Below, piece after piece: positions 10,756 through 53,325 of a stretch of 64,000 bases of DNA. The stretch covers positions 44,305-108,304 of the forward strand of contig CANIQT010000014.1 in the NCBI GenBank assembly GCA_947469885.1. The letters run 5' to 3'. The stretch's first letter is position 1; the number at the start of each line of letters is the position of its first letter. Below the pieces are notes generated by a model. The model was not told the origin of the DNA. It made no database searches and worked only from the letters and a program-made list of their open reading frames with translations. Position numbers and translations under genes: made by a program. The stretch is from Bacteroidota bacterium (GTDB lineage: Bacteria; Bacteroidota; Bacteroidia; 2-12-FULL-35-15).

Positions 10756-10925
10756 ATTGTCAAAATGGCATTGTCTTTTTAGACAAATGGGTTCCGAGTG
10801 TTCGGAATGCCATTGTCTTTTTAGACAATCCGGTTCCGATTGTTCGGAATGGCATTGTCTTTTTAGACAAAGCAGTTTCGATTGTTCGGAATGGCATTGT
10901 CTTTTTAGACAAAGAATTTCCAGTA
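10756..10925. repeat. Tandem repeat, 4 units of 42-44 bp, each carrying the perfect hairpin TTGTCT-tttt-AGACAA
   Basis: Units begin at 10763, 10805, 10847 and 10891. A conserved core GGCATTGTCTTTTTAGACAA is followed by a more variable CCGAnTGTTCGGAAT part. Confidence 0.85.
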
Positions 10926-24236: not shown

Positions 24237-24830
24237 ATGATAGATACAAATATATTATTAGCATGGGGTGCAACTTTTAAAAAATATTGCCAAGGAGACA
24301 TAATTTTTGAAGAAGGGGCAAGTTGCAATTTCTATTTTCAATTAATTGAAGGTAGAGTTAAATGGGTAAATTTTAATAGTGAAGGGAAAGAGTTTATTCA
24401 AACTATAATTGAACCTAATGAGAGTTTTGGAGAACTTCCCCTATTCGATGAAGGTCCTTATGCAGCTTGTGCTATCGCAGATGAAGATTGCTTGATAATG
24501 AGATTGAAAAAAGAAACTTTTACTCAATTAATATGTGAAAATTCTGATATAAATTTAAGTTTTACAAAGTTACTTGCAAAACGTCAACGATATGAATTTT
24601 TACTTTTAAAAACCATTGCGTTTGAAAATCCAGAAAAAAGGATTTCAACCTTACTCACACATTTTAAAAACAAACAAGTAAATACAAATCGCCAACTTTA
24701 CCAAGTAAATCTTACCCGACAACAAATCGCCAATATGACTGGTTTGAGAGTAGAAACAGTTATTCGAGAAATCCGAAATTTGAATTTAAAAGGTCGCCTG
24801 CAAATAATTCATGGAAAAGTTTTTGTTTAA
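24237..24830 (+). CDS. Crp/Fnr family transcriptional regulator (likely NO/denitrification regulator, NnrR/DNR-like)
   Basis: 197 aa. N-terminal cNMP-binding beta-roll (FGELPLFDEGPY) and C-terminal HTH (TRQQIANMTGLRVETVIREI). No FNR-type Cys cluster. Confidence 0.8.
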   Translation: MIDTNILLAWGATFKKYCQGDIIFEEGASCNFYFQLIEGRVKWVNFNSEGKEFIQTIIEPNESFGELPLFDEGPYAACAIADEDCLIMRLKKETFTQLICENSDINLSFTKLLAKRQRYEFLLLKTIAFENPEKRISTLLTHFKNKQVNTNRQLYQVNLTRQQIANMTGLRVETVIREIRNLNLKGRLQIIHGKVFV

Positions 24831-24832
24831 TT

Positions 24833-24846
24833 ATGACTACGGTCAT
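24833..24846. promoter_or_regulatory. FNR/DNR-like box aTGACtacgGTCAt upstream of the nnrS-norCB operon
   Basis: TGAC-N4-GTCA palindrome centred 51 nt upstream of the ATG at 24891, immediately after the regulator stop codon. Confidence 0.5.
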
Positions 24847-24890: not shown

Positions 24891-26126
24891 ATGGAACAAA
24901 CTTTACATAAATGGATTCGAATTGCTATTATTAATCTTAATATTATTGCGTTTATAGGAATCATTTTAAGATATAAAATTGCTTTCTCACTTCCGTTCAT
25001 TGATCAAAAACATTTATTACATGGTCATTCACATTTTGCTTTTGCAGGTTGGGTAACTCAAGCATTAATGATATTAATGGTTGCTTTCTTGTATTCTAAA
25101 GGGTTAAAAAATTCTTTCAAAAAGTACTTCTGGTTACTCCTTTTTAATTTACTAACTGCATACGGAATGTTGATTTCTTTTCCAATAGAGGGTTACGGAC
25201 TTTTCTCGATAACCTTTTCTACTCTTTCCATTTTCGTGTCTTACTTTTTTGCTGTGATTTTTTGGAAAGATTTGAATAGCCTAAAATCAACTTCTTCAAG
25301 CCATCTATGGTTCAAAGCCGCTATAATACTAAATTCAATTTCTTCTCTTGGAGCATTTGCATTGGCATTTATGATGGCTAAACATATTATACATCAAAAC
25401 TGGTATTTATCCTCTGTTTATTATTATCTGCATTTTCAATATAACGGATGGTTCTTTTTCGCTTGTATCGGCCTTCTTATTGATAAATTAGAATCTTATA
25501 AAATTTACAGTAAATTATACAAATTAATTTTCTGGCTTTTCTTTATCGCTTGTTTCCCTGCATATTTTTTGTCTACTTTATGGATGTCAATTCCAACTTG
25601 GACTTACATTATAGTTATACTTTCAGCAATAACGCAGGTTGTAGCCTGGTTTTTACTTATAAGAATAATGTATCATAATCTAGATACTTTGAATAGGGTT
25701 ACTACATTAGCATCAAAATGTTTGTTTTCTTTATCTGCGTTTGCACTATCTGTTAAGTTTCTTTTACAATTAGGTTCAACCTATCCTTCTTTAAGTACAT
25801 TAGCTTTTGGATTTCGTCCAATCGTAATTGGGTATTTGCATTTGGTCTTACTTGGTGCTATAACAATTTTTATTATTGGATATTTGGTAGCAAGAAATTT
25901 TGTTTCGATGAAGCGAAAATCCATTTTCGGTATGTGTATTTTTGTTTTTGGTATCATTTTTAATGAAATACTTTTGATGACTCAGGGTATTGCTGGTTTA
26001 AAATATGAAAGTGTTCCATTTACAAATGAATTACTTCTAATTGCGTCCATAATTATGTTTTCTGGAATATTGCTATTTGTTATAGGGCAGTACAAAAACA
26101 AATTACAATTACAAAATTCCGAATGA
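24891..26126 (+). CDS. Polytopic membrane protein, probable NnrS family (heme-copper NO-response protein)
   Basis: 411 aa, about 12 TM helices. The HGHSHFAFAG motif resembles the NnrS HxHExxFGF copper site. Translationally coupled (ATGA overlap) to norC. Confidence 0.45.
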   Translation: MEQTLHKWIRIAIINLNIIAFIGIILRYKIAFSLPFIDQKHLLHGHSHFAFAGWVTQALMILMVAFLYSKGLKNSFKKYFWLLLFNLLTAYGMLISFPIEGYGLFSITFSTLSIFVSYFFAVIFWKDLNSLKSTSSSHLWFKAAIILNSISSLGAFALAFMMAKHIIHQNWYLSSVYYYLHFQYNGWFFFACIGLLIDKLESYKIYSKLYKLIFWLFFIACFPAYFLSTLWMSIPTWTYIIVILSAITQVVAWFLLIRIMYHNLDTLNRVTTLASKCLFSLSAFALSVKFLLQLGSTYPSLSTLAFGFRPIVIGYLHLVLLGAITIFIIGYLVARNFVSMKRKSIFGMCIFVFGIIFNEILLMTQGIAGLKYESVPFTNELLLIASIIMFSGILLFVIGQYKNKLQLQNSE

Positions 26127-29272: not shown

Positions 29273-29295
29273 TAAATTTTGAAACCATAAATAAC

Positions 29296-30210
29296 ATGAA
29301 AAAACTACTATTTATAGCCGCAATCATTACTACAACCTCTGCCTTCAGTCAATGTGCCTGTTGCGCCGGATCTTTTACTGGAGCATCGAACGGAGATGCC
29401 AACAACGGTATTCTAACATTAAACGAAAAACAATTTGTCGTCGAAGCATATGCAGATTACAGAACTGTACAATCTGGGGAAGTAATTGAAGATGAGGAAA
29501 AGCTCTTACAAAGTATGTTTATTGGGTCCGTGGGGGCTCGATATGGAATAACCGATGAAATAACTATTTCTGGACTAATCCCTTATGTGCAGTTGCATAC
29601 CAGCAATGGAAATGATAAAGGGGTAGGCGATTTATCATTGCTCGGAACTTTTAGAATTCATAGTAAAAATAATTTCAGCATTGCTTTGCAAGAAGGCGTA
29701 GAGTTGCCCACCGGCATTCAAAAAAATTCTAATTTCGATAACACAACAGTCGTTATCGGCTCAGGTTCTTACGACCCCATCACAGGAATCATTATTTCCA
29801 AAAAGCTAAACAAATTTACTATTCGCCTAAATGTCCTTTATAAATTTACTACTCAGGGATTTCAACAAAATTATTACGGTAGTGTGGCTTCTCATAACGC
29901 TTCTGTTTTTTATAATCTCAAAACGGTGAACGCCTGCTATCCTACTGATAGTGTAGTAAACATACACTCCGATTTTGGATGCAATCTCTCACTCGGCTAT
30001 TATGGCGAATGGCTCGATAAAATTAAAGAAGATAATGTGGTGGATGAAAACTCGGGCTACTATGCAGCATTTGCAAACATAGGAACAATTCTTCTTTATA
30101 AAAAATGGAGTTTGCCTGTAACCATTTCTTTACCTATAATCTCACAAATGAACGGCTCCCAAAACAATCCGGGTTACAGATTGCGAATCGGAATAATTAA
30201 ATCTTTTTGA
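29296..30210 (+). CDS. Secreted hypothetical protein, probable outer-membrane beta-barrel (MetA/phenol-degradation-pathway-like transporter)
   Basis: 304 aa. Signal peptide, Cys-rich start (SQCACCAGS), alternating hydrophobic beta-strand pattern, C-terminal aromatic residue. Confidence 0.45.
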   Translation: MKKLLFIAAIITTTSAFSQCACCAGSFTGASNGDANNGILTLNEKQFVVEAYADYRTVQSGEVIEDEEKLLQSMFIGSVGARYGITDEITISGLIPYVQLHTSNGNDKGVGDLSLLGTFRIHSKNNFSIALQEGVELPTGIQKNSNFDNTTVVIGSGSYDPITGIIISKKLNKFTIRLNVLYKFTTQGFQQNYYGSVASHNASVFYNLKTVNACYPTDSVVNIHSDFGCNLSLGYYGEWLDKIKEDNVVDENSGYYAAFANIGTILLYKKWSLPVTISLPIISQMNGSQNNPGYRLRIGIIKSF

Positions 30211-30469
30211 GAAAAGAAAAAATACTAAAAATGTTACTTTACAGAAGCATTATTCAATGACAATTAATTTTCATTTAAACTCCTTTGAATTGGAAAAACA
30301 GAAGCACTTGAAGTTAAATAATATGATTTTAATCACATTTATTTTGTACAAAACGAATCACTGTTCATAAAACTTACTGAATGTTTACAACTGTAAATTT
30401 TTGCAGTATCTTCTCTTTATAACTTGCACTCAAAATTTATTCTTCATCTTACAATTAAAAAAAATCAGT

Positions 30470-33052
30470 ATGTCAATCCTCCACACACCTTCAAAAAAAG
30501 ACTATTCAAAGGTTACTTCTTATACCTATAATGAAGTGTTCGAAAAATGTTTGATTTATTTTCAGGGCGATGAACTGGCGGCATCCACATGGATAAATAA
30601 ATATGCAATGAAAAATAAGGAAGGAAAATATTTGGAACTCACTCCTGAAGACATGCACATTCGTATGGCAAAACAATTTGCCCGGAAAGAAAATGAGTAT
30701 AAGGAAAAAACGTATCTCAACGGGAGTTTAAAACTATTGTCTGATTACGGGCAGGAACGCACTCTGTTAAGTGAAGATAAAATACTTAACTACTTTCGAA
30801 ATTTTAAATATATCATTCCCCAAGGCAGTGTAATGTCTGCTTTGGGCAATCCTTTTATTATCGCATCTCTTTCTAATTGTATTGTATTACCTGAAATATA
30901 CGATTCCTATGGAGGAATATTTTACACCGATCAGCAAATGGCACAGTTGTTCAAAAGGCGGTGTGGAGTGGGGGTAGATATTTCTACGCTTCGTCCTGCA
31001 GGGAGTGATGTTTCCAATTCTGCCGGAACTACAACAGGTGCAGTGTCGTTCATGGAACGGTTTTCGAACACTACACGCGAAGTAGCACAAAACGGCAGAC
31101 GGGGTGCATTGATGATCACCATTGATATTGCTCACCCCGACATTGATAAGTTTATTACCATAAAACAAGATTTATCTAAAATAACAGGAGCTAATATTTC
31201 TGTGCGTTTGTCCGATGAGTTTATGAATGCGGTGAAAAACGATACAGATTATATGTTGCGTTTCCCAATTGATTCCCCTGCTCCAGAGTATTCAAAAACA
31301 TTAAAGGCACGCGATTTATGGAACACTATTATTAAGTGCGCCCACAACACTGCCGAGCCCGGATTAATTTTTTGGGACCGTCAGCATCATTATTCCACAT
31401 CCTCTGTTTACCCCGGTTTTAAAAATGTTTCCACCAATCCTTGTTCCGAAATAGCTATGCAGGGAGGGGACAGTTGTCGCTTAATTGCACTCAATCTTTT
31501 TAATTTTATTGATAAACCATTTACCAATGAAGCAACATTTGATTACAAAAAATTCTCTGAAACAACTTATGAAGCACAACGGCTGATGGATGATTTAGTA
31601 GATTTAGAACTTGAACATATAGAACGAATTATTTCGAAAATAAAATCAGATCCCGAGCCTGACTTTATTAAACAAGTAGAAAACGAAACATGGAAATTAC
31701 TTTACGATGCAGGGAAAAAAGGAAGAAGAACAGGACTAGGATTTACAGCATTGGCAGATGCCATGGCAGGTTTAGGTTTTAAGTTTGATTCGCCCGAAGC
31801 TCTTGCCGAAGTCGAAAAAATAATGAAAACAAAATGCGAAGCAGAATTCAACAGTTCGATTGATATGGCTATCGAGCGCGGAAAGTTTGAAGCATTTAAT
31901 CCTGAGATTGAAAATATCTCGGAGTTTATTCAGATGATGAAAATAGAATTCCCGGATGTATATAATAGAATGATGAAACACGGAAGAAGAAATATTTCAC
32001 TCAGCACAGTGGCACCTACAGGCACATTGAGTATGCTTGCACAGTCTTCTTCGGGAATAGAACCTGTGTTTTTACTTTCTTATAAAAGAAGAAAAAAAAT
32101 AAATCCTTTAGATAAAAATGTGCGTGTTGATTTTACCGATGCAAGTGGTGATTCGTGGCAGGAGTTTGAAGTATATCATCATAAATTAAAACGCTGGATG
32201 GAATTAACCGGAGAAAATAATAGTACTAAAAGCCCGTACAACGGCTCCACAGCAACCGAGATAGACTGGCTGAAACGAATAGAGTTACAATCCATTGTTC
32301 AGAAATATACCACACACTCCATCAGTTCTACCATCAATTTGCCAAACAATGTGAGTTTGGAGAAAGTTGGAGAAATATATTTGCAGGCTTGGGAGCAAGG
32401 ATTAAAAGGCATTACGGTGTATCGCGATGGTTCTCGTTCCGGAGTTTTAATTTCATCGAATGAGGAAAAGAAGCAAATCAAAACAAATGAAATTATTGAA
32501 TCGGTTGCTCCCAAACGCCCAGAAAAGCTTGAGGCTGAAATTATCCGCTTTATGAATCACGATGAAAAATGGATTGCATTTGTTGGAGTGCTGAACGGAA
32601 AGCCTTACGAAATATTTACAGGTAAATCAGAGGACTCCTTTGTAATTCCTTCGTGGGTGAATACAGGATGGATTATCAAAAACATTTCGAAAGATGATTT
32701 TCAAAAACGATATGATTTTCAGTACCTCGATAGAGATGGATACAAAGTTACAATAGAAGGACTTTCCCGCTCGTTTGATAAAGAGTACTGGAATTATGCA
32801 AAATTAATTTCAGGTGTGTTGCGTCATGGAATGCCTATTACTAGCGTTGTTGATTTAGTTGAAAATCTCAATCTATATAACGACAGAATAAATAATTGGA
32901 AAAATGGAGTCGGGCGATCGTTAAAAAAATTCATTCCTGATGGAACACAGGCGAAGGATAAAACATGCAGCAATTGTGGAGATGCAGATGGATTAATATA
33001 TGAAGAAGGTTGTTTGAAATGCAAGAGTTGCGGACACTCGAAATGCGGTTGA
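30470..33052 (+). CDS. nrdJ: Adenosylcobalamin-dependent ribonucleoside-diphosphate reductase (class II RNR, NrdJ)
   Basis: About 860 aa from the MSILHTP start (the ORF opens at 30401, but the Met at 30470 is more plausible). RNR barrel motifs and a C-terminal Zn-ribbon tail CSNCGDADG...CLKCKSCGH typical of class II. Confidence 0.88.
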   Translation: MSILHTPSKKDYSKVTSYTYNEVFEKCLIYFQGDELAASTWINKYAMKNKEGKYLELTPEDMHIRMAKQFARKENEYKEKTYLNGSLKLLSDYGQERTLLSEDKILNYFRNFKYIIPQGSVMSALGNPFIIASLSNCIVLPEIYDSYGGIFYTDQQMAQLFKRRCGVGVDISTLRPAGSDVSNSAGTTTGAVSFMERFSNTTREVAQNGRRGALMITIDIAHPDIDKFITIKQDLSKITGANISVRLSDEFMNAVKNDTDYMLRFPIDSPAPEYSKTLKARDLWNTIIKCAHNTAEPGLIFWDRQHHYSTSSVYPGFKNVSTNPCSEIAMQGGDSCRLIALNLFNFIDKPFTNEATFDYKKFSETTYEAQRLMDDLVDLELEHIERIISKIKSDPEPDFIKQVENETWKLLYDAGKKGRRTGLGFTALADAMAGLGFKFDSPEALAEVEKIMKTKCEAEFNSSIDMAIERGKFEAFNPEIENISEFIQMMKIEFPDVYNRMMKHGRRNISLSTVAPTGTLSMLAQSSSGIEPVFLLSYKRRKKINPLDKNVRVDFTDASGDSWQEFEVYHHKLKRWMELTGENNSTKSPYNGSTATEIDWLKRIELQSIVQKYTTHSISSTINLPNNVSLEKVGEIYLQAWEQGLKGITVYRDGSRSGVLISSNEEKKQIKTNEIIESVAPKRPEKLEAEIIRFMNHDEKWIAFVGVLNGKPYEIFTGKSEDSFVIPSWVNTGWIIKNISKDDFQKRYDFQYLDRDGYKVTIEGLSRSFDKEYWNYAKLISGVLRHGMPITSVVDLVENLNLYNDRINNWKNGVGRSLKKFIPDGTQAKDKTCSNCGDADGLIYEEGCLKCKSCGHSKCG

Positions 33053-33082
33053 TGATAATAAACAATTTAACTCGGCTTAATG

Positions 33083-34885
33083 CTATTCGAAACCGTATTT
33101 AAGTTTTATTTCAGTAATGTCATTTATAGCATTTTTTAATTCATTATTAAAGGCTTCCCAGTTAAGAATTAAGCCTTCTTTCAGATTTTGATAATAAACA
33201 ACTGCTTCTGAAATATTGTGAATAAAAGATTGATAATAGGTTTTTCCTTTACTGTCTTTTGTATCACCATTTCCCTGTATAAGTTCTTTTTTCAGATACT
33301 TAATATAAATTTTCATTTCAGCAATAAATACATGAGGACGTTGTTTGTTCGTAATTAAATCCTTTCTTCCATAAATGTGGTCCACCATTGTTTTTAAAGA
33401 AACTATCTGGGAAAAATTTGCGATGTTAGGACCGGGACAAATATTTACTGCATTCAGGTTTTTTAAAAATGGTTCATTATATCTGATGGAGGCTGCATTG
33501 CTAAGCCCTACACATAAACATTTTTTTGCAAGAACATCTTCCTTTTGTTTTTTATATTCTTCTTCCGGAAGATGAAGTGTTTTTAATTGTTCGAGTTTCA
33601 ACTTCTGGTACCTGCGAGAAGCAGTGCAAATGGGTTCAGTTGTAAATTCAGTGTTAAAACCCAAATGTTTTTCAGCACAAGGGCTGCCTGGTTTACCATC
33701 TTTTATTCGTTGAATTTTTTCTGCATCGGCTGTAGTTCCCTTTAAATAATAAAATTTAACTCCAAGAGGAGAATTATTGCTAAGTACCACATCTTTTTCG
33801 GTTGCATTTTTCAGGAGATTCAAGGTGTGCTCATCCACCGTAGTTGCTTCAGGAACTAACAAAAAAGGCGTTCCCCAACCAGTACTTGATATATCATAAT
33901 ATTCCAGAAGGAAATTTGCTTCTTCAGCTGTTCCTATTCCACCTTGCGCAGAAACTGCAATTGTAGGATAAAATGTAAAATCGAAACCAAGTTTTTTATT
34001 TATTGCCTGTTTATAAAGTTCAAAAATAGTTTCAGCTAATTCTTTTCTTTTGTTTTTAAATTCTTCAAGTATTGGTCCTAACAAATAACCATCAGTAGCA
34101 AAAGCATGTCCTCCGCAGTTCAATCCTGATTCGATTCGGAACTCAGATACCCATATTCCTTTTTTAGCTAAAAATTTTCCTTGTATCAATGCGGAGCGGT
34201 AATCGCTCACTTTTACAATTACTTTTTTATTGAATTCAAATTTTTCGTTTGGGTCAAAAGCATTAAATTTTTCGAGATACATAAACAATCTTGGATTCAA
34301 TCCTGCTGAAAAAACAATGGAGGAATTTGTTAAATCGCTTTTGAGATAACCACTCAATGCGGCAACAGCATCCGAGCCATCCACTATTGCATTTCCATTT
34401 GCATCACGATTTTCTCTATCGGTTTTCGTCATTATATTTACATCAATACTGCCGACAACAATTTGAGAGCGCAAATAAGTTTGTTTGATTGCTTTTTCAC
34501 TTTCATTGGCACAGTTCACCATTTCGTAATATAAAGTTTTTAACCGACTTTCGTCTGGGAGCATATCAAAATATTTAACAATTTCAGAACCCACTTCAAA
34601 TGATTCCGATTTTAGTTTTTCCATTTGTTGATGAACAATTGTGTTTACCAGATTCAAATAGTCTGTAATTCTTTTTGCTCTGTAATCAGGTTCCTGTCGG
34701 ATTATCGGGACGTAAGGTTTATTGATGAGAGGATAATAATGTTTGCGCATCATCTCCACTAGGCGATCTTCTATTATAGAAACTACTGATGTTATACCAA
34801 AACGTGCTACCTTGATTGGAGAGTCGATAGTATAACATAAACCCATTACAGGGATATGAAAATTGTGTACGTTGGTGTTTTTCAT
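33083..34885 (-). CDS. Hypothetical 600-aa protein with a weak FMN-dependent TIM-barrel (NMO/2-nitropropane dioxygenase-like) signature
   Basis: Long clean ORF. SAQGGIGTAEEA...GWGTPFLLVPEA resembles the GGI...GTRFL phosphate-binding tail of NMO-family enzymes. The remainder is unrecognised. Confidence 0.55.
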   Translation of the reverse strand: MKNTNVHNFHIPVMGLCYTIDSPIKVARFGITSVVSIIEDRLVEMMRKHYYPLINKPYVPIIRQEPDYRAKRITDYLNLVNTIVHQQMEKLKSESFEVGSEIVKYFDMLPDESRLKTLYYEMVNCANESEKAIKQTYLRSQIVVGSIDVNIMTKTDRENRDANGNAIVDGSDAVAALSGYLKSDLTNSSIVFSAGLNPRLFMYLEKFNAFDPNEKFEFNKKVIVKVSDYRSALIQGKFLAKKGIWVSEFRIESGLNCGGHAFATDGYLLGPILEEFKNKRKELAETIFELYKQAINKKLGFDFTFYPTIAVSAQGGIGTAEEANFLLEYYDISSTGWGTPFLLVPEATTVDEHTLNLLKNATEKDVVLSNNSPLGVKFYYLKGTTADAEKIQRIKDGKPGSPCAEKHLGFNTEFTTEPICTASRRYQKLKLEQLKTLHLPEEEYKKQKEDVLAKKCLCVGLSNAASIRYNEPFLKNLNAVNICPGPNIANFSQIVSLKTMVDHIYGRKDLITNKQRPHVFIAEMKIYIKYLKKELIQGNGDTKDSKGKTYYQSFIHNISEAVVYYQNLKEGLILNWEAFNNELKNAINDITEIKLKYGFE

Positions 34886-34937
34886 TTTTTTGATTTTGTT
34901 TAAGATACAAAGTGACTAAAAATAAAGGGAAGGAAAT

Positions 34938-34951
34938 ATGATTCTAATCAC
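34938..34951. promoter_or_regulatory. FNR/DNR-like box aTGATtctaATCAc in the divergent nadA / 600-aa gene promoter region
   Basis: TGAT-N4-ATCA palindrome, 57 nt upstream of the nadA ATG and 59 nt upstream of the 600-aa gene start. Confidence 0.4.
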
Positions 34952-35001
34952 ATAAAAATAATTTTATAAGTATCAATTTTGCATAAATTTTAAAATAAGT
35001 T

Positions 35002-35907
35002 ATGGCTGACAATAGAGATTTATTAAAACAAATTACAAAGCTGAAGAAAGAAAAAAACGCAATAATATTGGTGCATAATTATCAACGGCCTGAAATTTAT
35101 GAAGTAGCTGATTTTATAGGCGATTCGCTCGAGCTTTCTAGAAAAGCTGCCGAAACAGAGGCCCAAACCATTGTATTTTGCGGTGTTTCTTTTATGGCTG
35201 AAACAGCAAAAATATTGAGCCCAAACAAAAATGTTTTGTTGCCAAATTTAGAGGCGGGTTGTTCATTGGCAGATATGATAACTGCCGATCAGGTCAATTC
35301 TCTTAGAGCAAATTTTCCGGAAGCAGCTGTTGTGAGTTATGTGAACACGAATGCAGCTGTTAAAGCAGTTTCTGATATTTGCTGCACATCGGCAAATGCA
35401 GTGAAAATATTGAATTCATTGCCTAACGATGAAATAATTTTTTTGCCTGATAAAAATTTAGGGAGTTATGTTCAATCACATACATTGAAAAAAATTTATG
35501 TGTGGGATGGATATTGCTCTGTTCATCAGGATTTGAAAAAGCAGGATTTAATTTCATTTAAAAAAGAACATCCGCTTGCAAAAATAATTGCACACCCCGA
35601 ATGTAAAAAGGATGTGCTGGAAGTAGCAGATTTTGTTTGCGGTACAGGAGGGATGGCAAAATATGCAGAGAATAATGATAGTTCAGAGTTTATTGTTGTT
35701 ACCGAATGCGGAATGACAAACAAATTGAGGGATGATGTTCCTGAAAAACATTTTTATTCTTTCTGCAATCTTTGTTCGTTTATGAAGGCAACTACTTTGG
35801 AGATGGTTTTGAAATCATTACAGGAAAATAAACACCCCATTTATCTGCCGGAAGAAATAATGAATAAAGCACGAAATTCAATTACCCGAATGTTAGCATT
35901 AGCCTGA
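35002..35907 (+). CDS. nadA: Quinolinate synthase NadA
   Basis: 301 aa. ILVHNYQRPEI and FCGVSFMAETAKIL motifs and conserved Cys ligands. Confidence 0.93.
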   Translation: MADNRDLLKQITKLKKEKNAIILVHNYQRPEIYEVADFIGDSLELSRKAAETEAQTIVFCGVSFMAETAKILSPNKNVLLPNLEAGCSLADMITADQVNSLRANFPEAAVVSYVNTNAAVKAVSDICCTSANAVKILNSLPNDEIIFLPDKNLGSYVQSHTLKKIYVWDGYCSVHQDLKKQDLISFKKEHPLAKIIAHPECKKDVLEVADFVCGTGGMAKYAENNDSSEFIVVTECGMTNKLRDDVPEKHFYSFCNLCSFMKATTLEMVLKSLQENKHPIYLPEEIMNKARNSITRMLALA

Positions 35908-35914
35908 TTAATTT

Positions 35915-36703
35915 ATGAAAGTAGCAATAATAGGATGTGGAAATATTGGTTTCGAAATTGCAACCTTTATTAATAATTGTTCTGATTTTGAACTACATTC
36001 TTTAACCGATATTAATTTAGATAATATCGAGAAAATCACGAACAAACTCTCCCGGAAAATAAAAATAAGTAATCTGGAAACAGCTATAGTCGAATCCGAT
36101 TTGATTATAGAAGCTTCCAATAAAGAAGTGGTGAAAGAAATTCTTTTAGACAAAAATATTGATAGCAAAAATAAAAAACTGCTGGTAATGAGTACAGGCG
36201 GACTGATTGAGAATACAGGGCTATTATATAGAATAAAAAAGTGCAAAATTCATGTGCCTTCGGGTGCTATTGCCGGATTAGATGCCATCAGGGCAGTTGC
36301 AGGTCAAATTACTTTTCTCAGGTTGGTTACTACCAAGCCTCCGGAATCTTTATCCGGCTCACCTTACATTAATGCCAATTGTATAAAACTGGAATCGCTG
36401 AAAACGAAAACAACTATTTTTAAAGGAGAATTGAAGGAAGCAATTAATGGATTTCCGAAAAACATAAATATTGCAGCAAGTTTATTCCTTGCATCCAAAT
36501 TCGAAGATATCAGTATTGAAATTGTTGCCAATCCCAATACTAGGTTCAATACTCATAAAATTATTTGTAAAGGGAAATTTGGTGAATTGAATTGTAAAAT
36601 AATTAACCGTCCTAGCAGCAATCCTAAAACAAGTTACCTTGCAATATTGAGTGCTATTGGTGTGTTAAAAAATATGACGACAAACTTAAAGGTTGGATAT
36701 TGA
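35915..36703 (+). CDS. nadX: L-aspartate dehydrogenase NadX
   Basis: 262 aa. Rossmann GxGxIG start plus VPSGAIAGLD, TKPPESL, FPKNINIAAS and NPKTSYLAILSAIGVLKN blocks matching Thermotoga-type NadX. Directly follows nadA. Confidence 0.8.
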   Translation: MKVAIIGCGNIGFEIATFINNCSDFELHSLTDINLDNIEKITNKLSRKIKISNLETAIVESDLIIEASNKEVVKEILLDKNIDSKNKKLLVMSTGGLIENTGLLYRIKKCKIHVPSGAIAGLDAIRAVAGQITFLRLVTTKPPESLSGSPYINANCIKLESLKTKTTIFKGELKEAINGFPKNINIAASLFLASKFEDISIEIVANPNTRFNTHKIICKGKFGELNCKIINRPSSNPKTSYLAILSAIGVLKNMTTNLKVGY

Positions 36704-36841
36704 GATGGGTTGATTCCCTTTCACGTCAAATATACTAAACTGGAATTCAAAGAAAATACCCCAAGGATTCTCGATTAGTTTATTAGAAGGCTCCGATTAC
36801 TTTTGTTTTCCATTATATCCTCAAGTGAATTCTTTTCCTTT

Positions 36842-36855
36842 ATGATTGTTGTCAT
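36842..36855. promoter_or_regulatory. FNR/DNR-like box aTGATtgttGTCAt upstream of the desaturase gene
   Basis: TGAT-N4-GTCA palindrome centred about 44 nt upstream of a TATTTTTG -7 box (36880-36887). Confidence 0.4.
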
Positions 36856-36909
36856 ATAAACTTTATACTTGAATATTTATTTTTGCAACCAGATTTTTAA
36901 TAATTAAAT

Positions 36910-37998
36910 ATGAAAACAATAAAATTTGTATCCACAGATAAACATCAGCAGGCATTTGCTAAGGCAGTGAGAAAAAATGTAAATAACTATTTCAAAGAAA
37001 AAGGACTTTCTACCAAAGGAAATTTAGAATTAGCAATACAAACCTCAGTAATGCTCATCTTATACATTGTTCCTTTTGTTGCTTTTTTCTTTGTTCCTAT
37101 AAATGTATTAACAGGTTTTCTCCTAACAGTAATAATGGGCATAGGATTGGCTGGAATTGGTATGTGCACGATGCACGATGCCGTGCATCATTCTTTTTCC
37201 AATAAAGAATGGGTAAATAAATTATTTGGCGGTACGTTATATTTAATTGGTGCCAATGTTTTCAACTGGGAAATACAACATAATATTTTACATCACACCT
37301 ATACCAATATTGAAGGATACGACCAGGATATTGAATCGCGCGGCCCAATTCGATTATCCGAAAATGCCCCGCTTCGCAAAATACATCGTTATCAATATAT
37401 TCACGCTTTTTTCTTTTATGGTTTAATGACCCTTTCTAAATTGGTTAAGGATTTTACTCAATTAGTTTTTTATAATAAAGAAGGAATTACGCGAAGATTT
37501 AATTTCAATCCAACGTTTGAATATATTAAAATGGTTGTTCTTAAACTTATTTATCTATTTGTTATTATTGGCTTTCCTATTCTATTCACAAATTTTAGAT
37601 GGTGGCAGGTGATTTTAGGTTTTCTAATAATGCATTGGACTGCGGGGCTTATTTTGAGCATAATATTCCAGATGGCGCATGTGGTGGAAGGGGCAGAAGA
37701 GCCTATGCCGGATGTTGATGGTGTAATAAATAACGAATGGGCTGTTCACCAGCTTCATACTACATCCGACTTTGCAAGAAACAATCATTTTCTGAACTGG
37801 TATGTGGGGGGATTAAATTTTCAGATTGAACATCATTTGTTTCCAAACATTTCTCATGTTCATTATCAAAAAATAGCACCAATAGTAGAAAAGACTGCGA
37901 AGGAATTTGGTTTTAATTATAATCTGAAACCATCTTTCGTCAGCGCGCTTTCTTCTCATATTCGAAGATTAAGAATGCTTGGACAGCAACCTGTTTAG
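36910..37998 (+). CDS. Membrane fatty acid desaturase (three His-box, di-iron, O2-dependent)
   Basis: 362 aa. His boxes HDAVHH, HNILHH and QIEHHLFP with intervening TM helices. Confidence 0.85.
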   Translation: MKTIKFVSTDKHQQAFAKAVRKNVNNYFKEKGLSTKGNLELAIQTSVMLILYIVPFVAFFFVPINVLTGFLLTVIMGIGLAGIGMCTMHDAVHHSFSNKEWVNKLFGGTLYLIGANVFNWEIQHNILHHTYTNIEGYDQDIESRGPIRLSENAPLRKIHRYQYIHAFFFYGLMTLSKLVKDFTQLVFYNKEGITRRFNFNPTFEYIKMVVLKLIYLFVIIGFPILFTNFRWWQVILGFLIMHWTAGLILSIIFQMAHVVEGAEEPMPDVDGVINNEWAVHQLHTTSDFARNNHFLNWYVGGLNFQIEHHLFPNISHVHYQKIAPIVEKTAKEFGFNYNLKPSFVSALSSHIRRLRMLGQQPV

Positions 37999-38012
37999 GC
38001 AGTACGCTTTCC

Positions 38013-38189
38013 TTAAGAAAAAATTATAATTAACAATAAGGTCAATCCTAATAAAAAGGAAAACATTATTAATTTTAATCCTCTCTTAAAATCCGATTGC
38101 ATTTTTTTCGCGCGAATAATATATACCATAAAGGCACAGCCCAAGAACCATAACAATCCTAACCATCCATATTCCGAATTTCCACTCAT
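38013..38189 (-). CDS. Possible 58-aa two-TM micro-membrane protein
   Basis: Unlisted short ORF MSGNSEYGWLGLLWFLGCAFMVYIIRAKKMQSDFKRGLKLIMFSFLLGLTLLLIIIFS. I have only composition to go on. Confidence 0.2.
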   Translation of the reverse strand: MSGNSEYGWLGLLWFLGCAFMVYIIRAKKMQSDFKRGLKLIMFSFLLGLTLLLIIIFS

Positions 38190-38457
38190 TGTTTTAATTT
38201 TAAAAATTTATCATTCTCTTTTTTTCATTTTTTTTCTAAAACCTAAAGTATTGTATGTAATTTATTTTTTTGAAAGGTTACCGACCAGTAATTAGTTCAC
38301 CATTTGCTGCGACCTTGGCTTTTTACTGCATTAGCACTTATACTTGCGGCAAAGGGAGTTTATAACGTTGTGATGTTTGTAATCCAATTGGTCGGGAGTT
38401 AATAAAATGAATCAATATATAGTTATACTTCTTACTTATTTGTATTGCAGAAGTTTG

Positions 38458-38776
38458 TACCCGACCGCTTGATATTTCTACCCGACCGCTTGATACTTCT
38501 GCACGACCGCTTGATATGTGTAACCGACCGCTTGATACTTCTGCACGACCGCTTGATATGTGTACCCGACCGTTTGATACTTCTGCCTGACCGCTTGATA
38601 CTTCTACCCGACCGCTTGATACTTCTACCCGACCGCTTGATACATCTACACGACCGCTTGATACTTCTGCACGACTGCTTGATACATCTACACGACCGCT
38701 TGATACTTCTGCACGACCGCTTGATACTTCTGCACGACCGCTTGATATGTGTACCCGACCGCTTGATACTTCTGCG
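38458..38776. repeat. Tandem array of about 15 copies of a 21-bp unit (consensus CCGACCGCTTGATACTTCTGC)
   Basis: Directly visible. Units vary at 3-4 positions. All six frames stay open. The minus strand encodes a heptad (RAEVSSG)n preceded by a signal-peptide-like MLLGVFLVFCLAHA. Confidence 0.9.
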
Positions 38777-38839
38777 TGCGCCAAACAAAAAACAAGGAAT
38801 ACCCCCAAAAGCATTGCTGCTGCTGGTGTTTTTACGAAA

Positions 38840-39556
38840 CGGGTATTTGTCTGCTGTTTATTTCTTTTTGCATTTTCAGTACAACGGTTGGTTCTTTTTT
38901 GCTTGCATGGGTTTACTGGTAGATAAACTCGAGTTTCACAACACAGAGCAAGTTATACAAAGAAATATTCTGGCTCTTTTTTCTTTCCTGTTTTCCTGCC
39001 TATTTTCTTTCCACCCTTTGGATGCACATGCTGTTTGGATTTATATCCTTGTAGTTCTTTCAGCAATTGCTCAGGTGGTTGCCTAGTTCTTACTCACCAA
39101 AGCCATGTTTCATCATCTCGACTCTCTCAACAGAGCAATTTCTACTGCCGCAAAATTTTTATTTGCATTGTCAGCATTTGCTTTGTCATTAAAATTTTTG
39201 TTACAATTGGGTTCAACATATCCTCCTTTAAGTACCCTTGCTTTTGGCTTTCGCCCAATTGTAATTGCATATCTGCATTTAGTTTTGCTTGGAGTGATTA
39301 CCATTTTTATTATTGGATACATTGTCGCCAATCATTTGTGGTGATGAATATAAAATCAATAATAGGTATTTGCACTTTTGTTTTCGGAATTGTTGCAAAC
39401 GAAATACTACTAATGGCTCAGGGGGTAGCAGGTTTAAAATACGAAAGTATCCCTTATGCAAACGAGATGCTTTTAATTGCTGCATTAAGAATGTTTATTG
39501 GTATTTTGCTTTTTGTTTTGGGACAGTTACAAAGAATCCAGAAAACAACTGATTAA
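38840..39556 (+). pseudogene. Frameshifted partial duplicate (C-terminal ~240 aa) of the NnrS-like gene at 24891-26126
   Basis: Three different plus frames give YFFLHFQYNGWFFFACMGLLVDKLE, LSAFALSLKFLLQLGSTYPPLSTLAFGFRPIVIAYLHLVLLG and NEILLMAQGVAGLKYESIPYANEMLLIAA. Each is about 75-85% identical to consecutive segments of the intact gene. Confidence 0.8.
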
Positions 39557-39559
39557 CTA

Positions 39560-40582
39560 TTATTTCTGCTGCCACTTGGCACCTCTGGTGAGTTGGTATT
39601 TTAAAGAAATTTCGGCACCTCCGTTGTGGTTGCTCACCGTAGAATAAGAAGAAGTATTGACATCAAACGAAATGCCTATCGAAAAATTTGCTATTTCATA
39701 ATTCACTTGTGGAATAAACGCATCACCAAAACGATAATGCGCGCCAATCGAAATTCCTGATTCGGAAATATAACCGGTAACTTTAGTAGCATTTTTGAAG
39801 CGGTGACGAATCATTGCGCCCACATTAAATTCGTTCGATTTGCCTTGAATGAAACAAACAAACGAAGGAATGATGGAAATGCTGGAGCCAGAAAGGTCGA
39901 GATAACCATTGATATTTACAACCGCTTTGCCATACAATTTTTCTGTAGCCGAAAAATATTGTTGCTCTGGTTGATTCATGTGATAATAAGCAAAACCAAT
40001 AGCCAAGCGTTTTTGCTCATTACGCTCCATAGTGTTTTTTCCACTGTAATATTCATAATACACGCCAGCACTCAAATCAGTATAAAAAGCAGATGTAAAT
40101 GCTACTGGCTCGTTGGGGTTAATGTTGTTGTCAAATCCTTTACCATCATATTGGTCGCCCCAACGAAGGGCAGAATAATCGGCTTTGTGTTGAGCGCCAC
40201 CGGCCGAAAGTCCAACAGAAATAACCGAAAGGCGAGTTACTGGCAAAATGCCTGACACACAAACTGCCACCTCAGTTAAACCTACTTTGGCATCACCCGC
40301 TTTGTCGCTAAATAAATTTAAACCTAAACCAAGATGAGCTTTGTTTGCTTTTTTGCCAACAATAGGTGCATCTACCGAAGCAGCCACTGTGTTAAACGAA
40401 TTGCCCATTGCCATCCATTGATTTTTATAATTGATGATTCCTCTTATGGCCCCGTCATAAACCCCTGTGGCACCCGGATTAACTAACTGAGGTGTTTCGG
40501 TGAACTGAGAAAAATGAATATCCTGTGCAACAGCAACAGAAAAAACAAAAAGAGTAACTATTATGGAGTATATTTTTTTCAT
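39560..40582 (-). CDS. Type IX secretion system membrane protein, PorP/SprF family
   Basis: 340 aa. Signal peptide then the hallmark DIHFSQF...PQLVNPGATG N-terminus. Sits immediately downstream of a type-B CTD cargo gene. Confidence 0.85.
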   Translation of the reverse strand: MKKIYSIIVTLFVFSVAVAQDIHFSQFTETPQLVNPGATGVYDGAIRGIINYKNQWMAMGNSFNTVAASVDAPIVGKKANKAHLGLGLNLFSDKAGDAKVGLTEVAVCVSGILPVTRLSVISVGLSAGGAQHKADYSALRWGDQYDGKGFDNNINPNEPVAFTSAFYTDLSAGVYYEYYSGKNTMERNEQKRLAIGFAYYHMNQPEQQYFSATEKLYGKAVVNINGYLDLSGSSISIIPSFVCFIQGKSNEFNVGAMIRHRFKNATKVTGYISESGISIGAHYRFGDAFIPQVNYEIANFSIGISFDVNTSSYSTVSNHNGGAEISLKYQLTRGAKWQQK

Positions 40583-44508: not shown

Positions 44509-44781
44509 GCCTCCCGACTTGGAGATGGGACAAAACAAACCTTTTGGTGCACTTCCTGATGTGGAGATACACCAAAACAACTCTTTTTGAGCATCTCCCG
44601 ATTGGAAGGTGGAACAAATAAATTGTAACGATGCATCTCCTGATTGGGAGATACAACCAAACAACTGTTTTGGGGTATCTCCAAGCTGGAAGATGGGACA
44701 AAACAACTCTTTTGCAGTATCTCCGTACTTGGAGGTGGCACAAATTGAATTATTTGATGTATCTCCCAGTCGGGAGATTGC
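44509..44781. repeat. Tandem array of 6.5 units of 42 bp, each carrying an ATCTCC-N4-6-GGAGAT hairpin and a CAAAACAA...TTTTG segment
   Basis: Units start at 44509, 44551, 44593, 44635, 44677, 44719 and 44761. Perfect stems are seen in ATCTCCtgattgGGAGAT and ATCTCCCagtcGGGAGAT. Confidence 0.85.
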
Positions 44782-52419: not shown

Positions 52420-53156
52420 GGTTGTCCCCTTTTTTTTGGGAGCGCAAATTTATCAAAAATAAACAAACGGAACGTATTATTTAGTCTAAAGCCTAAAGCA
52501 CCAAGTTTAAAGTTTCAAGTTCAAAGTTGTACCACCAACTTTGGACTTTGGACTTTCTGACTTTTGACTTCTATTCAGTAATAATTTCTGCCCCGGGGTA
52601 TAGTCTTTTCCATACATCTAACGATGATAAACGGTTTATTACAACCACTGTTTTGTAATCAAGTCTTACTTTTATTTTTTTCAATAAATTTACTTGTTGT
52701 GCCGGAATTAATTTTTTAGCTCTCATGTTTTTTTGTTTTAGTCCTTTTAAAAAGGAGGTTTATATTTATACCACAAAAGTAGATGAAACGAACTAGGCAG
52801 GAGTTGCAAAATTTATGATATTTGTTATATAGTTTACTGATATATATCAGGTTGTTGTTATAGAATGGGCAAAGAAATTTGTAATCTTTACTCTATCTGT
52901 TTTCTCCTGTTGAGCGTAGCCTCTGGCTACGTTCTATTTAACAAGGCTTCCAGCCTTATTTACAACAGCACTAGTTCTATTGTTTTTCAAAACAATCATT
53001 ATTATTTTCAGTAAAGATATGGATTTATTTAATTGTTTTTGGAAGGATTGCAAGATGCCTAAAGGGATTTTAAAGTCGTTAGTTAAATAAACCTGCCTCC
53101 CCGATAAAATATCAGGAAGACAGGTTTTGTTAAACTAAAATAACCGGATGACATCA

Positions 53157-53325
53157 AAATCCTGTATTTTGAAACCTTACGCCTGTATTTTCAAATCAAA
53201 ATCCTGTATTTTGAAACCATACGCCTGTATTTTCAAATCAAAATCCTGTATTTTGAAACCATACGCCTGTATTTTCAAATCAAAATCCTGTATTTTGAAA
53301 CCCTGCCACCGGATTTTCATCTTGC
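53157..53325. repeat. Tandem repeat, 4 units of 42 bp (each an internal 21-bp duplication of CCTGTATTTT[G/C]AAA)
   Basis: CCTGTA occurrences at 53161, 53203, 53245 and 53287. The units are nearly identical. Confidence 0.85.

Follow-up and report, generated by a model that had tools for sequence, protein, structure and literature searches.

The question raised by this locus is why a row of short tandem repeats stands where the N-terminal half of a gene should be, and whether the repeats had any part in the loss of that half. The locus lies in a 64,000-nucleotide (64-kb) stretch of DNA, called the window throughout, which is part of a 112-kb metagenome scaffold. A preliminary description of this DNA had read it as a decayed partial copy of an NnrS-like gene, left from a second nor-type locus that was disrupted by repeat expansion, or else as a recombination product.

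On the plus strand, the sequence at 38837..39556 is almost certainly a pseudogene, the 3′ fragment of a second copy of the 411-amino-acid gene (P0002) that lies intact at 24891..26126 (+) in a nos/nor cluster. A blastn comparison aligned positions 38837-39533 with 25397-26096 of the intact gene at 72% identity over 704 nt (E 8e-103), and tblastn matched the fragment to residues 169-403 of the intact protein at 62-68% identity (E 2e-79) across shifted frames. With the frames stitched together, the fragment spans codons ~169-411, which cover predicted helices 6-12 by the helix boundaries of an AlphaFold model of the intact protein. It carries three frameshifts, a net loss of 2 nt near 38934-38950, a net loss of 1 nt near 39025-39040 and a loss of 1 nt near 39330-39333, together with a TGG-to-TAG change at 39084-39086 that replaces the family-invariant W253, and it keeps the original stop, TAA, at 39554-39556. 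The 5′ truncation falls at codon ~169: no homology to the gene was detected upstream of 38837, and the N-terminal part of the second copy was found nowhere in the 64-kb window. In these respects the preliminary description, which had called the fragment a pseudogene and a truncated second copy of 24891-26126, was borne out. It had also allowed that the similarity might be confined to low-complexity transmembrane segments, which would make the fragment no true paralog; this is not so, because the similarity is continuous through loops as well as helices and has a codon-position signature. The fragment was also considered as a silent-cassette donor for gene conversion and rejected as such, given its 72% identity, its short runs of identity with the intact gene (the longest about 17 nt, by eye), its frameshifts and its stop.

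The age of the second copy and the age of its inactivation appear to be very different. Between fragment and intact copy, dN is 0.20, codon positions 1 and 2 are 81% identical and position 3 is 48% identical; the corresponding values are 0.19, 82% and 44% for the fragment against the sister-species gene, and 0.17, 82% and 48% for the intact copy against the sister-species gene, both of which are functional. The codon-position profile of the pairs that include the fragment thus matches that of the functional pair. The dS between fragment and intact copy is about 3 (saturated), with a dN/dS of about 0.07, and the distances of the fragment protein to outgroups equal those of the functional copy. 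In a neighbour-joining tree the fragment is sister to (P0001,(P0002,P0003)), in which P0002 is the intact copy. Since silent sites are saturated while positions 1 and 2 remain 81% identical, the fragment derives from a working, long-diverged copy that was disabled recently, and the same two features led us to reject a recent duplicate in slow decay. That copy was either a paralog of long standing or a xenolog acquired from a related species. The earlier term "decayed" is right in that the copy is dead and misleading as to its history, because nearly all of the divergence from the intact copy arose under purifying selection, so that the copy is old and its inactivation recent. A chimeric origin of the intact gene found no support, as its N-terminal half (75.7%) and its C-terminal half (75.0%) stand at the same distance from the sister ortholog.

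The identity of the intact gene bears on what was lost. Upstream of it lie a Crp/Fnr-family gene (24237-24830) and a palindromic box, ATGAY-N4-RTCAT, at 24833-24846, and downstream follow a cytochrome c gene and a COX1-family (NorB-like) oxidase gene, with nosZ nearby. NnrS (Pfam PF05940) is a heme-copper membrane protein of the NnrR regulon, and the intact protein resembles it in its ~400-residue length, its 12 helices, its invariant histidines (H46, H181 and H317 throughout the family) and its position beside a Crp/Fnr regulator, nor, nos and a palindromic box. By sequence, however, the 411-residue proteins form a separate, unnamed family and the label "NnrS-like" was not upheld: the protein has no Pfam or NCBIfam match at E<=0.01-1, neither it nor 29 relatives (30 diverse members in all) match PF05940, COX1 (PF00115) or any other family at E<=10, and a PDB sequence search with the 30-sequence profile found no match. 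The family has about 5000 relatives, nearly all of them unnamed Bacteroidota proteins of about 410 residues. The AlphaFold model has 12 long helices (pLDDT 86, pTM 0.89), and Foldseek against the PDB matched it to cbb3 CcoN (3mk7, TM 0.71, E 2e-6) and cNOR (4xyd, TM 0.69), from which a 12-helix fold like that of heme-copper-oxidase subunit I is predicted. An NnrS-like mode of working is plausible from context and architecture, although the PF05940 profile test failed. Because of the oxidase-like fold and the occurrence in nos/nor clusters behind a Crp/Fnr-type box, the family is a candidate NnrS analogue in denitrifying Bacteroidota and worth characterising. The locus records the recent loss, by this organism, of a divergent second copy of a membrane protein with ties to nitric-oxide/nitrous-oxide respiration.

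The array that stands in place of the N-terminal half occupies 38458..38773, with no strand assigned. Tandem Repeats Finder (TRF) gave 15.0 spacerless copies with a period of 21 bp, 84% matches, no indels and a score of 429, and an in-register listing of the units gave the same structure. The consensus is TACCCGACCGCTTGATACTTC, with one polymorphic position, at which 9 units have A and the other 6 have G; the earlier count of about 15 copies holds, and the unit then given is a rotation of this consensus in its G variant. An 18-mer of the unit has 15 matches in the 64-kb window, all within the array, where 0.02 would be expected by chance. Each unit consists of a near-invariant 13-bp core, CGACCGCTTGATA, which also has 15 matches in the window against 0.58 expected, and an 8-bp linker of about four recurring types (CTTCTGCA, TGTGTAMC, CTTCTACC and CATCTACA). 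The core is changed by only three singleton C-to-T differences in 195 bp, and the variants shared between units all lie in the linker. A split of this kind into invariant core and variable linker would arise by chance with a probability of roughly 1-5%, and selection acting on the core could explain its invariance. The longest exact repeat internal to the array is 48 bp. The units are contiguous and head-to-tail with a period within 10-100 bp, which is the structure of a minisatellite; a CRISPR array was rejected, as no unique spacers lie between the units.

Neither the array nor its surroundings appear to be made from the missing half of the gene. Derivation of the unit from that half was rejected, its best match there being 12-13 of 21 positions, as for shuffled sequence. 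Between array and fragment lies a 63-bp spacer (38774..38836, no strand) that is neither repeat nor gene-derived and has no protein or DNA alignment to the 411-residue family. Disruption by repeat expansion, as proposed earlier, is therefore unsupported as the cause of the truncation, since the unit is not gene-derived, an unrelated spacer separates array and fragment, and growth of a repeat adds DNA and would not remove 500 bp of a gene. On the other side of the array lies an AT-rich, ORF-free stretch of 268 bp (38190..38457, no strand). It contains an inverted partial copy of the core, CAATTGGTCGGG, at 38385-38396, an inverted 9-mer of the unit junction, TGCAGAAGT, at 38446-38454, and three CGACC/GGTCG pentamers where about 0.16 are expected, none of these motifs being in array register. 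Decayed array units in the flanks were considered and rejected, with in-register matches at background level, and neither the 268-bp region nor the 63-bp spacer has homology to any fetched locus. Beyond the 268-bp region lies the left neighbour, a publicly called 58-residue two-helix ORF (38013..38189, -) that is divergent from the array and has no family match. The right neighbour is a PorP/SprF type IX secretion gene (39560..40582, -; Pfam PF11751, E 4.8e-38), which is transcribed towards the pseudogene, is separated from the pseudogene's stop by 3 nt, and served as the synteny anchor. Public gene calls place spurious ORFs on both the array and the fragment.

Two reading frames through the array raise the alternative that it is protein-coding, which we consider extremely unlikely. 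One ORF of 158 residues (38338-38814, -), annotated by public gene callers, begins with a hydrophobic, signal-peptide-like N-terminus, MLLGVFLVFCLAHA, and continues as (EVSSGRV)n; the other, an open frame of 213 residues (38445-39086, +), reads (PDRLILL)n and is fused in frame to the fragment. Three of the six frames are open through the array, but a 21-bp unit without stop codons keeps frames open automatically, and the plus-strand ORF runs into the frameshifted, stop-containing fragment. The unit variants are mostly non-synonymous in the 158-residue frame, which makes coding unlikely. When the through-ORF of the array was searched against 5.8 billion proteins, the sole related protein was a 6-unit version of the same locus; a further weak match, P0122, proved to be an unrelated 21-bp array in another organism. 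Pfam matches were weak repeat noise, six of them below the cut-offs and two (DUF7077 and DUF4097) just above with 0-1 significant stretches. The Bacteroidota -7 promoter motif is absent from 38000-38900. The Bacteroidota promoter consensus differs from the sigma-70 type, and sigma-70-type matches inside the array were rejected because TTGATA recurs mechanically every 21 bp. An FNR-type half-site (TTGAT in the unit) was likewise rejected, as the box that precedes the intact gene reads ATGAY-N4-RTCAT and a second half-site is missing from the unit. At the RNA level, folding of the array gave no signal (z = +1.95 and -0.79), and Rfam returned no match to it.

The number of units raises the question of assembly quality. 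In five contigs from other samples the sequence ends about 55 bp inside the array, as small-k assembly graphs predict, and one contig, in assembly L015, has 6 units instead of 15, so that array length or frameshifts might be put down to errors of short-read metagenome assembly. We regard the chance of this as close to negligible. Three independent assemblies (L001, L003 and L005, the last being the NCBI MAG GCA_947472355.1) are 100% identical, base for base, across array and fragment over 2.7 kb; the imperfect units stand in a unique order and, with a longest exact repeat of 48 bp, the array is resolvable by short reads; and the frameshifts lie outside homopolymer runs. In L015 the flanks are 100% identical and units 6-14 (9 units) are cleanly missing between two 48-bp exact repeats, which may reflect a real variant or a collapse by the assembler. 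A sister-species array differs between two assemblies by exactly one 21-bp unit (11.3 vs 10.3 copies). Array length would change by slippage or by unequal exchange between units.

Gene order places the array and fragment at a junction that appears to be unstable. In the window, a cytochrome c gene (-), crp, the 411-residue gene, norC-like, norB-like and tnaA-like genes are followed by a 10.3-kb segment (a 304-residue ORF, ribonucleotide reductase, a 600-residue ORF, nadA, aspartate dehydrogenase, desaturase and the 58-residue ORF), and beyond this segment come the array, the fragment, PorP (-), CotH (-) and ribBA. In the sister species (L011/L012), whose neighbouring proteins are 65-85% identical to those of the window, the order is cytochrome c (-), a 409-residue gene, tnaA-like, PorP (-), CotH (-) and ribBA, with no second copy, no 10.3-kb segment and no norCB beside the single copy. 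No remnant of norC, norB, crp, cytochrome c or tnaA was found near the fragment either, and these observations lend no support to the idea of a second nor-type locus. After the fragment stop comes CTAT, which the sister species also has at its 409/tnaA junction; a tnaA copy since lost could have left this trace, though a match of four bases is no proof. At the 3′ side of the PorP orthologs that are 79%, 74% and 66% identical stands an amine oxidase, a convergent ribonucleotide reductase or a 246-residue gene, and across 12 more distant PorP loci from JGI metagenomes the CotH-PorP pair alone is conserved; among 56 desaturase loci there is no common flank, even at 89% identity. Because a different gene lies 3′ of PorP in each related species examined, the junction is probably rearrangement-prone and the 3′ side of PorP a rearrangement hot spot. 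The suggestion of a recombination product fits these data. A search of relatives for an intact second copy, which the preliminary description had recommended, found neither a second copy nor the array in the context of the closest protein, the 56 desaturase loci, the 12 PorP loci or the three nearest orthologs, and the best relative of the reconstructed fragment among 5.8 billion proteins was 74% identical.

Arrays of this kind turned out to be common in the lineage. TRF was run on the window and about 750 kb of fetched Bacteroidota loci, 817 kb in total, which contained 24 non-coding arrays. Fifteen of the 24 have a period of 21 or 42 bp, and four more have periods of 20, 22 or 43 bp. Within the 127 kb made up of the window and its closest three relatives (L011, L086 and L087), all 12 non-coding arrays have a period of 21 or 42 bp, at a density of about one per 10 kb. 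Each array has a unit of its own, many of them with an inverted repeat within the unit, and both the window and L086 have a 42-bp array immediately downstream of ribBA. The focal unit was not found in viral contigs, in plasmid or phage records, or in fetched loci other than those of the same strain. Given this habit of the lineage, the focal array is one of many minisatellites and calls for no special event tied to the gene.

The same census bears on a different reading, in which the array works in cis: it would present 15 phased sites to a DNA-binding protein, spaced by two turns of the helix, and would act as plasmid iterons, partition sites or a regulator sink do, perhaps controlling the divergent 58-residue gene or local chromosome structure. 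The near-invariant core with its variable linker would suit such a role, as would a 21-bp period equal to two helix turns, the recurrence in the lineage of 21 and 42 bp together with 20, 22 and 43 bp, which are not multiples of three, the operator-like inverted repeats within units of many sister arrays, the enrichment of CGACC pentamers in the 268 bp upstream and the shared 42-bp array downstream of ribBA. The focal unit itself, however, is not palindromic, its core has no single copies elsewhere in the 64 kb, and none of the relatives and collections searched contains the unit. Its neighbours are desaturase, the 58-residue ORF and PorP, with no adjacent rep, par or regulator gene and no DnaA box in 38000-39000, and its apparent copy number ranges from 6 to 15. 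On balance we consider a working cis-element unlikely, while giving it more weight than any other rival. For the arrays as a class, the periods of 20, 22 and 43 bp favor helical phasing over codon periodicity and suggest that structure or protein binding may constrain them. As a long shot we propose that the focal array belongs to a class of elements spread through the lineage, intergenic arrays whose sequence is arbitrary but whose period is strict, at two or four turns of the helix (21/42 bp, occasionally 20, 22 or 43), and which would be maintained for DNA-protein assemblies or local DNA structure and not by neutral slippage.

The explanation that we favor, and consider probable though far from assured, is that a pseudogene and a lineage-typical variable minisatellite, two unrelated and non-functional pieces of DNA, have become neighbours at a junction prone to rearrangement. 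The array is likely to be such a minisatellite, with no locus-specific function, which a deletion or rearrangement set beside the fragment. The homology, the lesions, the signature of selection, the uniqueness of the unit and the variability of synteny were observed; the sequence in which events took place and the neutrality of the array are inferred. The second copy would once have been functional, as a long-diverged paralog or a xenolog, while the working copy sits in the nos/nor cluster; it would have been inactivated recently when its promoter and the first ~168 codons were lost, and after truncation it would have gained three frameshifts and one stop. The array would have no sequence-specific function at this locus and would not have caused the truncation. 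The finding thus looks real and ordinary in kind, a rearrangement scar and not a working system, and the oxidase-fold family and the 21/42-bp habit of the lineage look more interesting than the scar itself.

Among described systems, the nearest analogue is BrickBuilt of Porphyromonas gingivalis, a minisatellite/MITE built from as many as about 23 copies of a spacerless 23-nt repeat (Klein et al. 2015, PMC4596501). Its imperfect units have conserved and variable parts, and the elements are always intergenic, have been mis-annotated as hypothetical genes and often lie by type IX genes (PMC4596501). A single unit family occurs 19 times per genome, with shared leader and tail flanks whose ends are inverted repeats, and promoter activity has been measured (PMC4596501). 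The focal array is similar in phylum, in its head-to-tail arrangement, in a period of about two helical turns (21 vs 23 nt), in the division of its unit into conserved and variable parts, in its intergenic position near type IX genes and in having been miscalled as a gene, whereas its unit is unique, its flanks are unshared and lack inverted ends, and the arrays of its lineage each have their own unit. This precedent within the phylum (PMC4596501), and a position separated by a single dead gene from a PorP/CotH type IX operon, suggest a further alternative, that the array is the core of a BrickBuilt-like MITE whose insertion into, or recombination within, the second copy produced the truncation. 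We hold this to be very unlikely, since terminal inverted repeats and leader/tail flanks were not found, there is no inverted repeat between the two array flanks, and these flanks have nothing in common with those of 17 other arrays. The focal unit forms a single array in the 64-kb window and in a protein-level search of public assemblies, and an insertion would leave the 5′ half of the gene upstream, but that half is absent from the whole window.

Iterons and partition sites provide a second comparison. R6K has seven 22-bp iterons and F sopC has twelve 43-bp repeats. With these the focal array has in common contiguous direct repeats, a repeat length that corresponds to two or four turns of the helix, and a conserved core, but it has no rep or par gene, no DnaA boxes and no plasmid or phage match, and it stands in a chromosomal housekeeping context. 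A third likeness is to the VNTR or minisatellite loci used in MLVA typing, which are intergenic tandem units of 10-100 bp. The focal array resembles them in its intergenic units, in the propagation of variant units in blocks and in apparent length differences between samples; it differs in the preference of its lineage for periods of 21 and 42 bp and in an array density of about one per 10 kb. To our knowledge, such a preference combined with so high a density is not a described property of ordinary VNTRs. The clade is unusually rich in 21/42-bp arrays, and this richness, if confirmed genome-wide, will need a mechanistic or functional explanation.

Tandem arrays with a period of 21 or 42 bp (sometimes 20, 22 or 43 bp) recur in related Bacteroidota. 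Besides the 15.0-copy, 21-bp array at 38458-38773, three more arrays with a period of 42 bp (or 21/42) lie in the non-coding DNA of the window, at 10764-10914, 44523-44744 and 53153-53319; the unit differs in each, and every unit contains an inverted repeat. Of the 24 arrays detected outside coding sequence across 817 kb, 15 have a period of 21 or 42 bp, as do all 12 among the closest relatives (the window, the sister-species assembly L011 and the close relatives L086 and L087). Arrays in relatives were located at 4020-4993 of L011, 15515-15771 of L086, and 83-313 and 7008-7084 of L087, as well as in the Bacteroidota loci L074, L075, L041, L063 and L020. Upstream of type IX secretion cargo genes in L011, a single intergenic region of 1.8 kb holds three different arrays. 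The two sister-species assemblies, L011 and L012, are 99.84% identical across 17.6 kb, and the array at 4192-4428 of L011 differs from that at 4213-4428 of L012 by exactly one 21-bp unit (11.3 vs 10.3 copies).

In both the window (44523-44744) and L086 (5691-6030), the ribBA stop codon is followed after about 75-100 bp by a 42-bp array; these are two species in which the type IX secretion gene PorP is 74% identical. The units of these two arrays are different or barely related, and the arrangement represents either a conserved array site or a position shared by chance.

In public annotations, a 158-aa ORF (38338-38814, minus strand) spans the focal array, and ORFs of 42 and 68 aa (39142-39270 and 39279-39485, minus strand) run antisense to the pseudogene fragment, which is itself uncalled; all three ORFs look like annotation artefacts. 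The sole other weak protein match to the array ORF, at 737-957 of L089, was rejected as a relative, being an unrelated 21-bp array with the unit TCGGGACGTGCGCAAGAGTCT. L089 is a GC-rich JGI metagenome contig, on which a hemerythrin gene adjoins that array.

The array and fragment belong to a 10.3-kb segment (29273-39559), which also carries a 304-aa ORF, ribonucleotide reductase, a 600-aa ORF, nadA, aspartate dehydrogenase, a desaturase and a 58-aa ORF; the sister species lacks this segment between tnaA and PorP. In L086, ribonucleotide reductase immediately adjoins PorP. The desaturase gene and its upstream box (36842-37998, compared with 5937-7094 of L016) behave as a single-gene module. The gene is 89% identical to that of another species (L016), with homology ending at the gene ends and no shared neighbours. 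The box, a palindrome of the form ATGAY-N4-RTCAT, lies 55 nt upstream, and in L016, L017 and L022 the desaturase is likewise preceded by this box, at a distance of 50-78 nt.

This 14-bp box occurs six times in the window (16478, 24025, 24158, 24833, 36842 and 49114) against 0.35 expected, including upstream of the 411-aa gene (24891-26126) and in the nosZ/cytochrome c-crp intergenic region, and is also present upstream of the 409-aa gene of L011. It is probably a site for the adjacent Crp/Fnr-family regulator. The 411-aa protein, termed NnrS-like in the preliminary description, has no sequence match in Pfam, NCBIfam or PDB and is one of about 5000 proteins in an unnamed Bacteroidota family, in which H46, H181 and H317 are invariant. 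Its confidently predicted fold of 12 helices resembles heme-copper oxidase subunit I, with a TM score of 0.71 to CcoN of the cbb3 oxidase.
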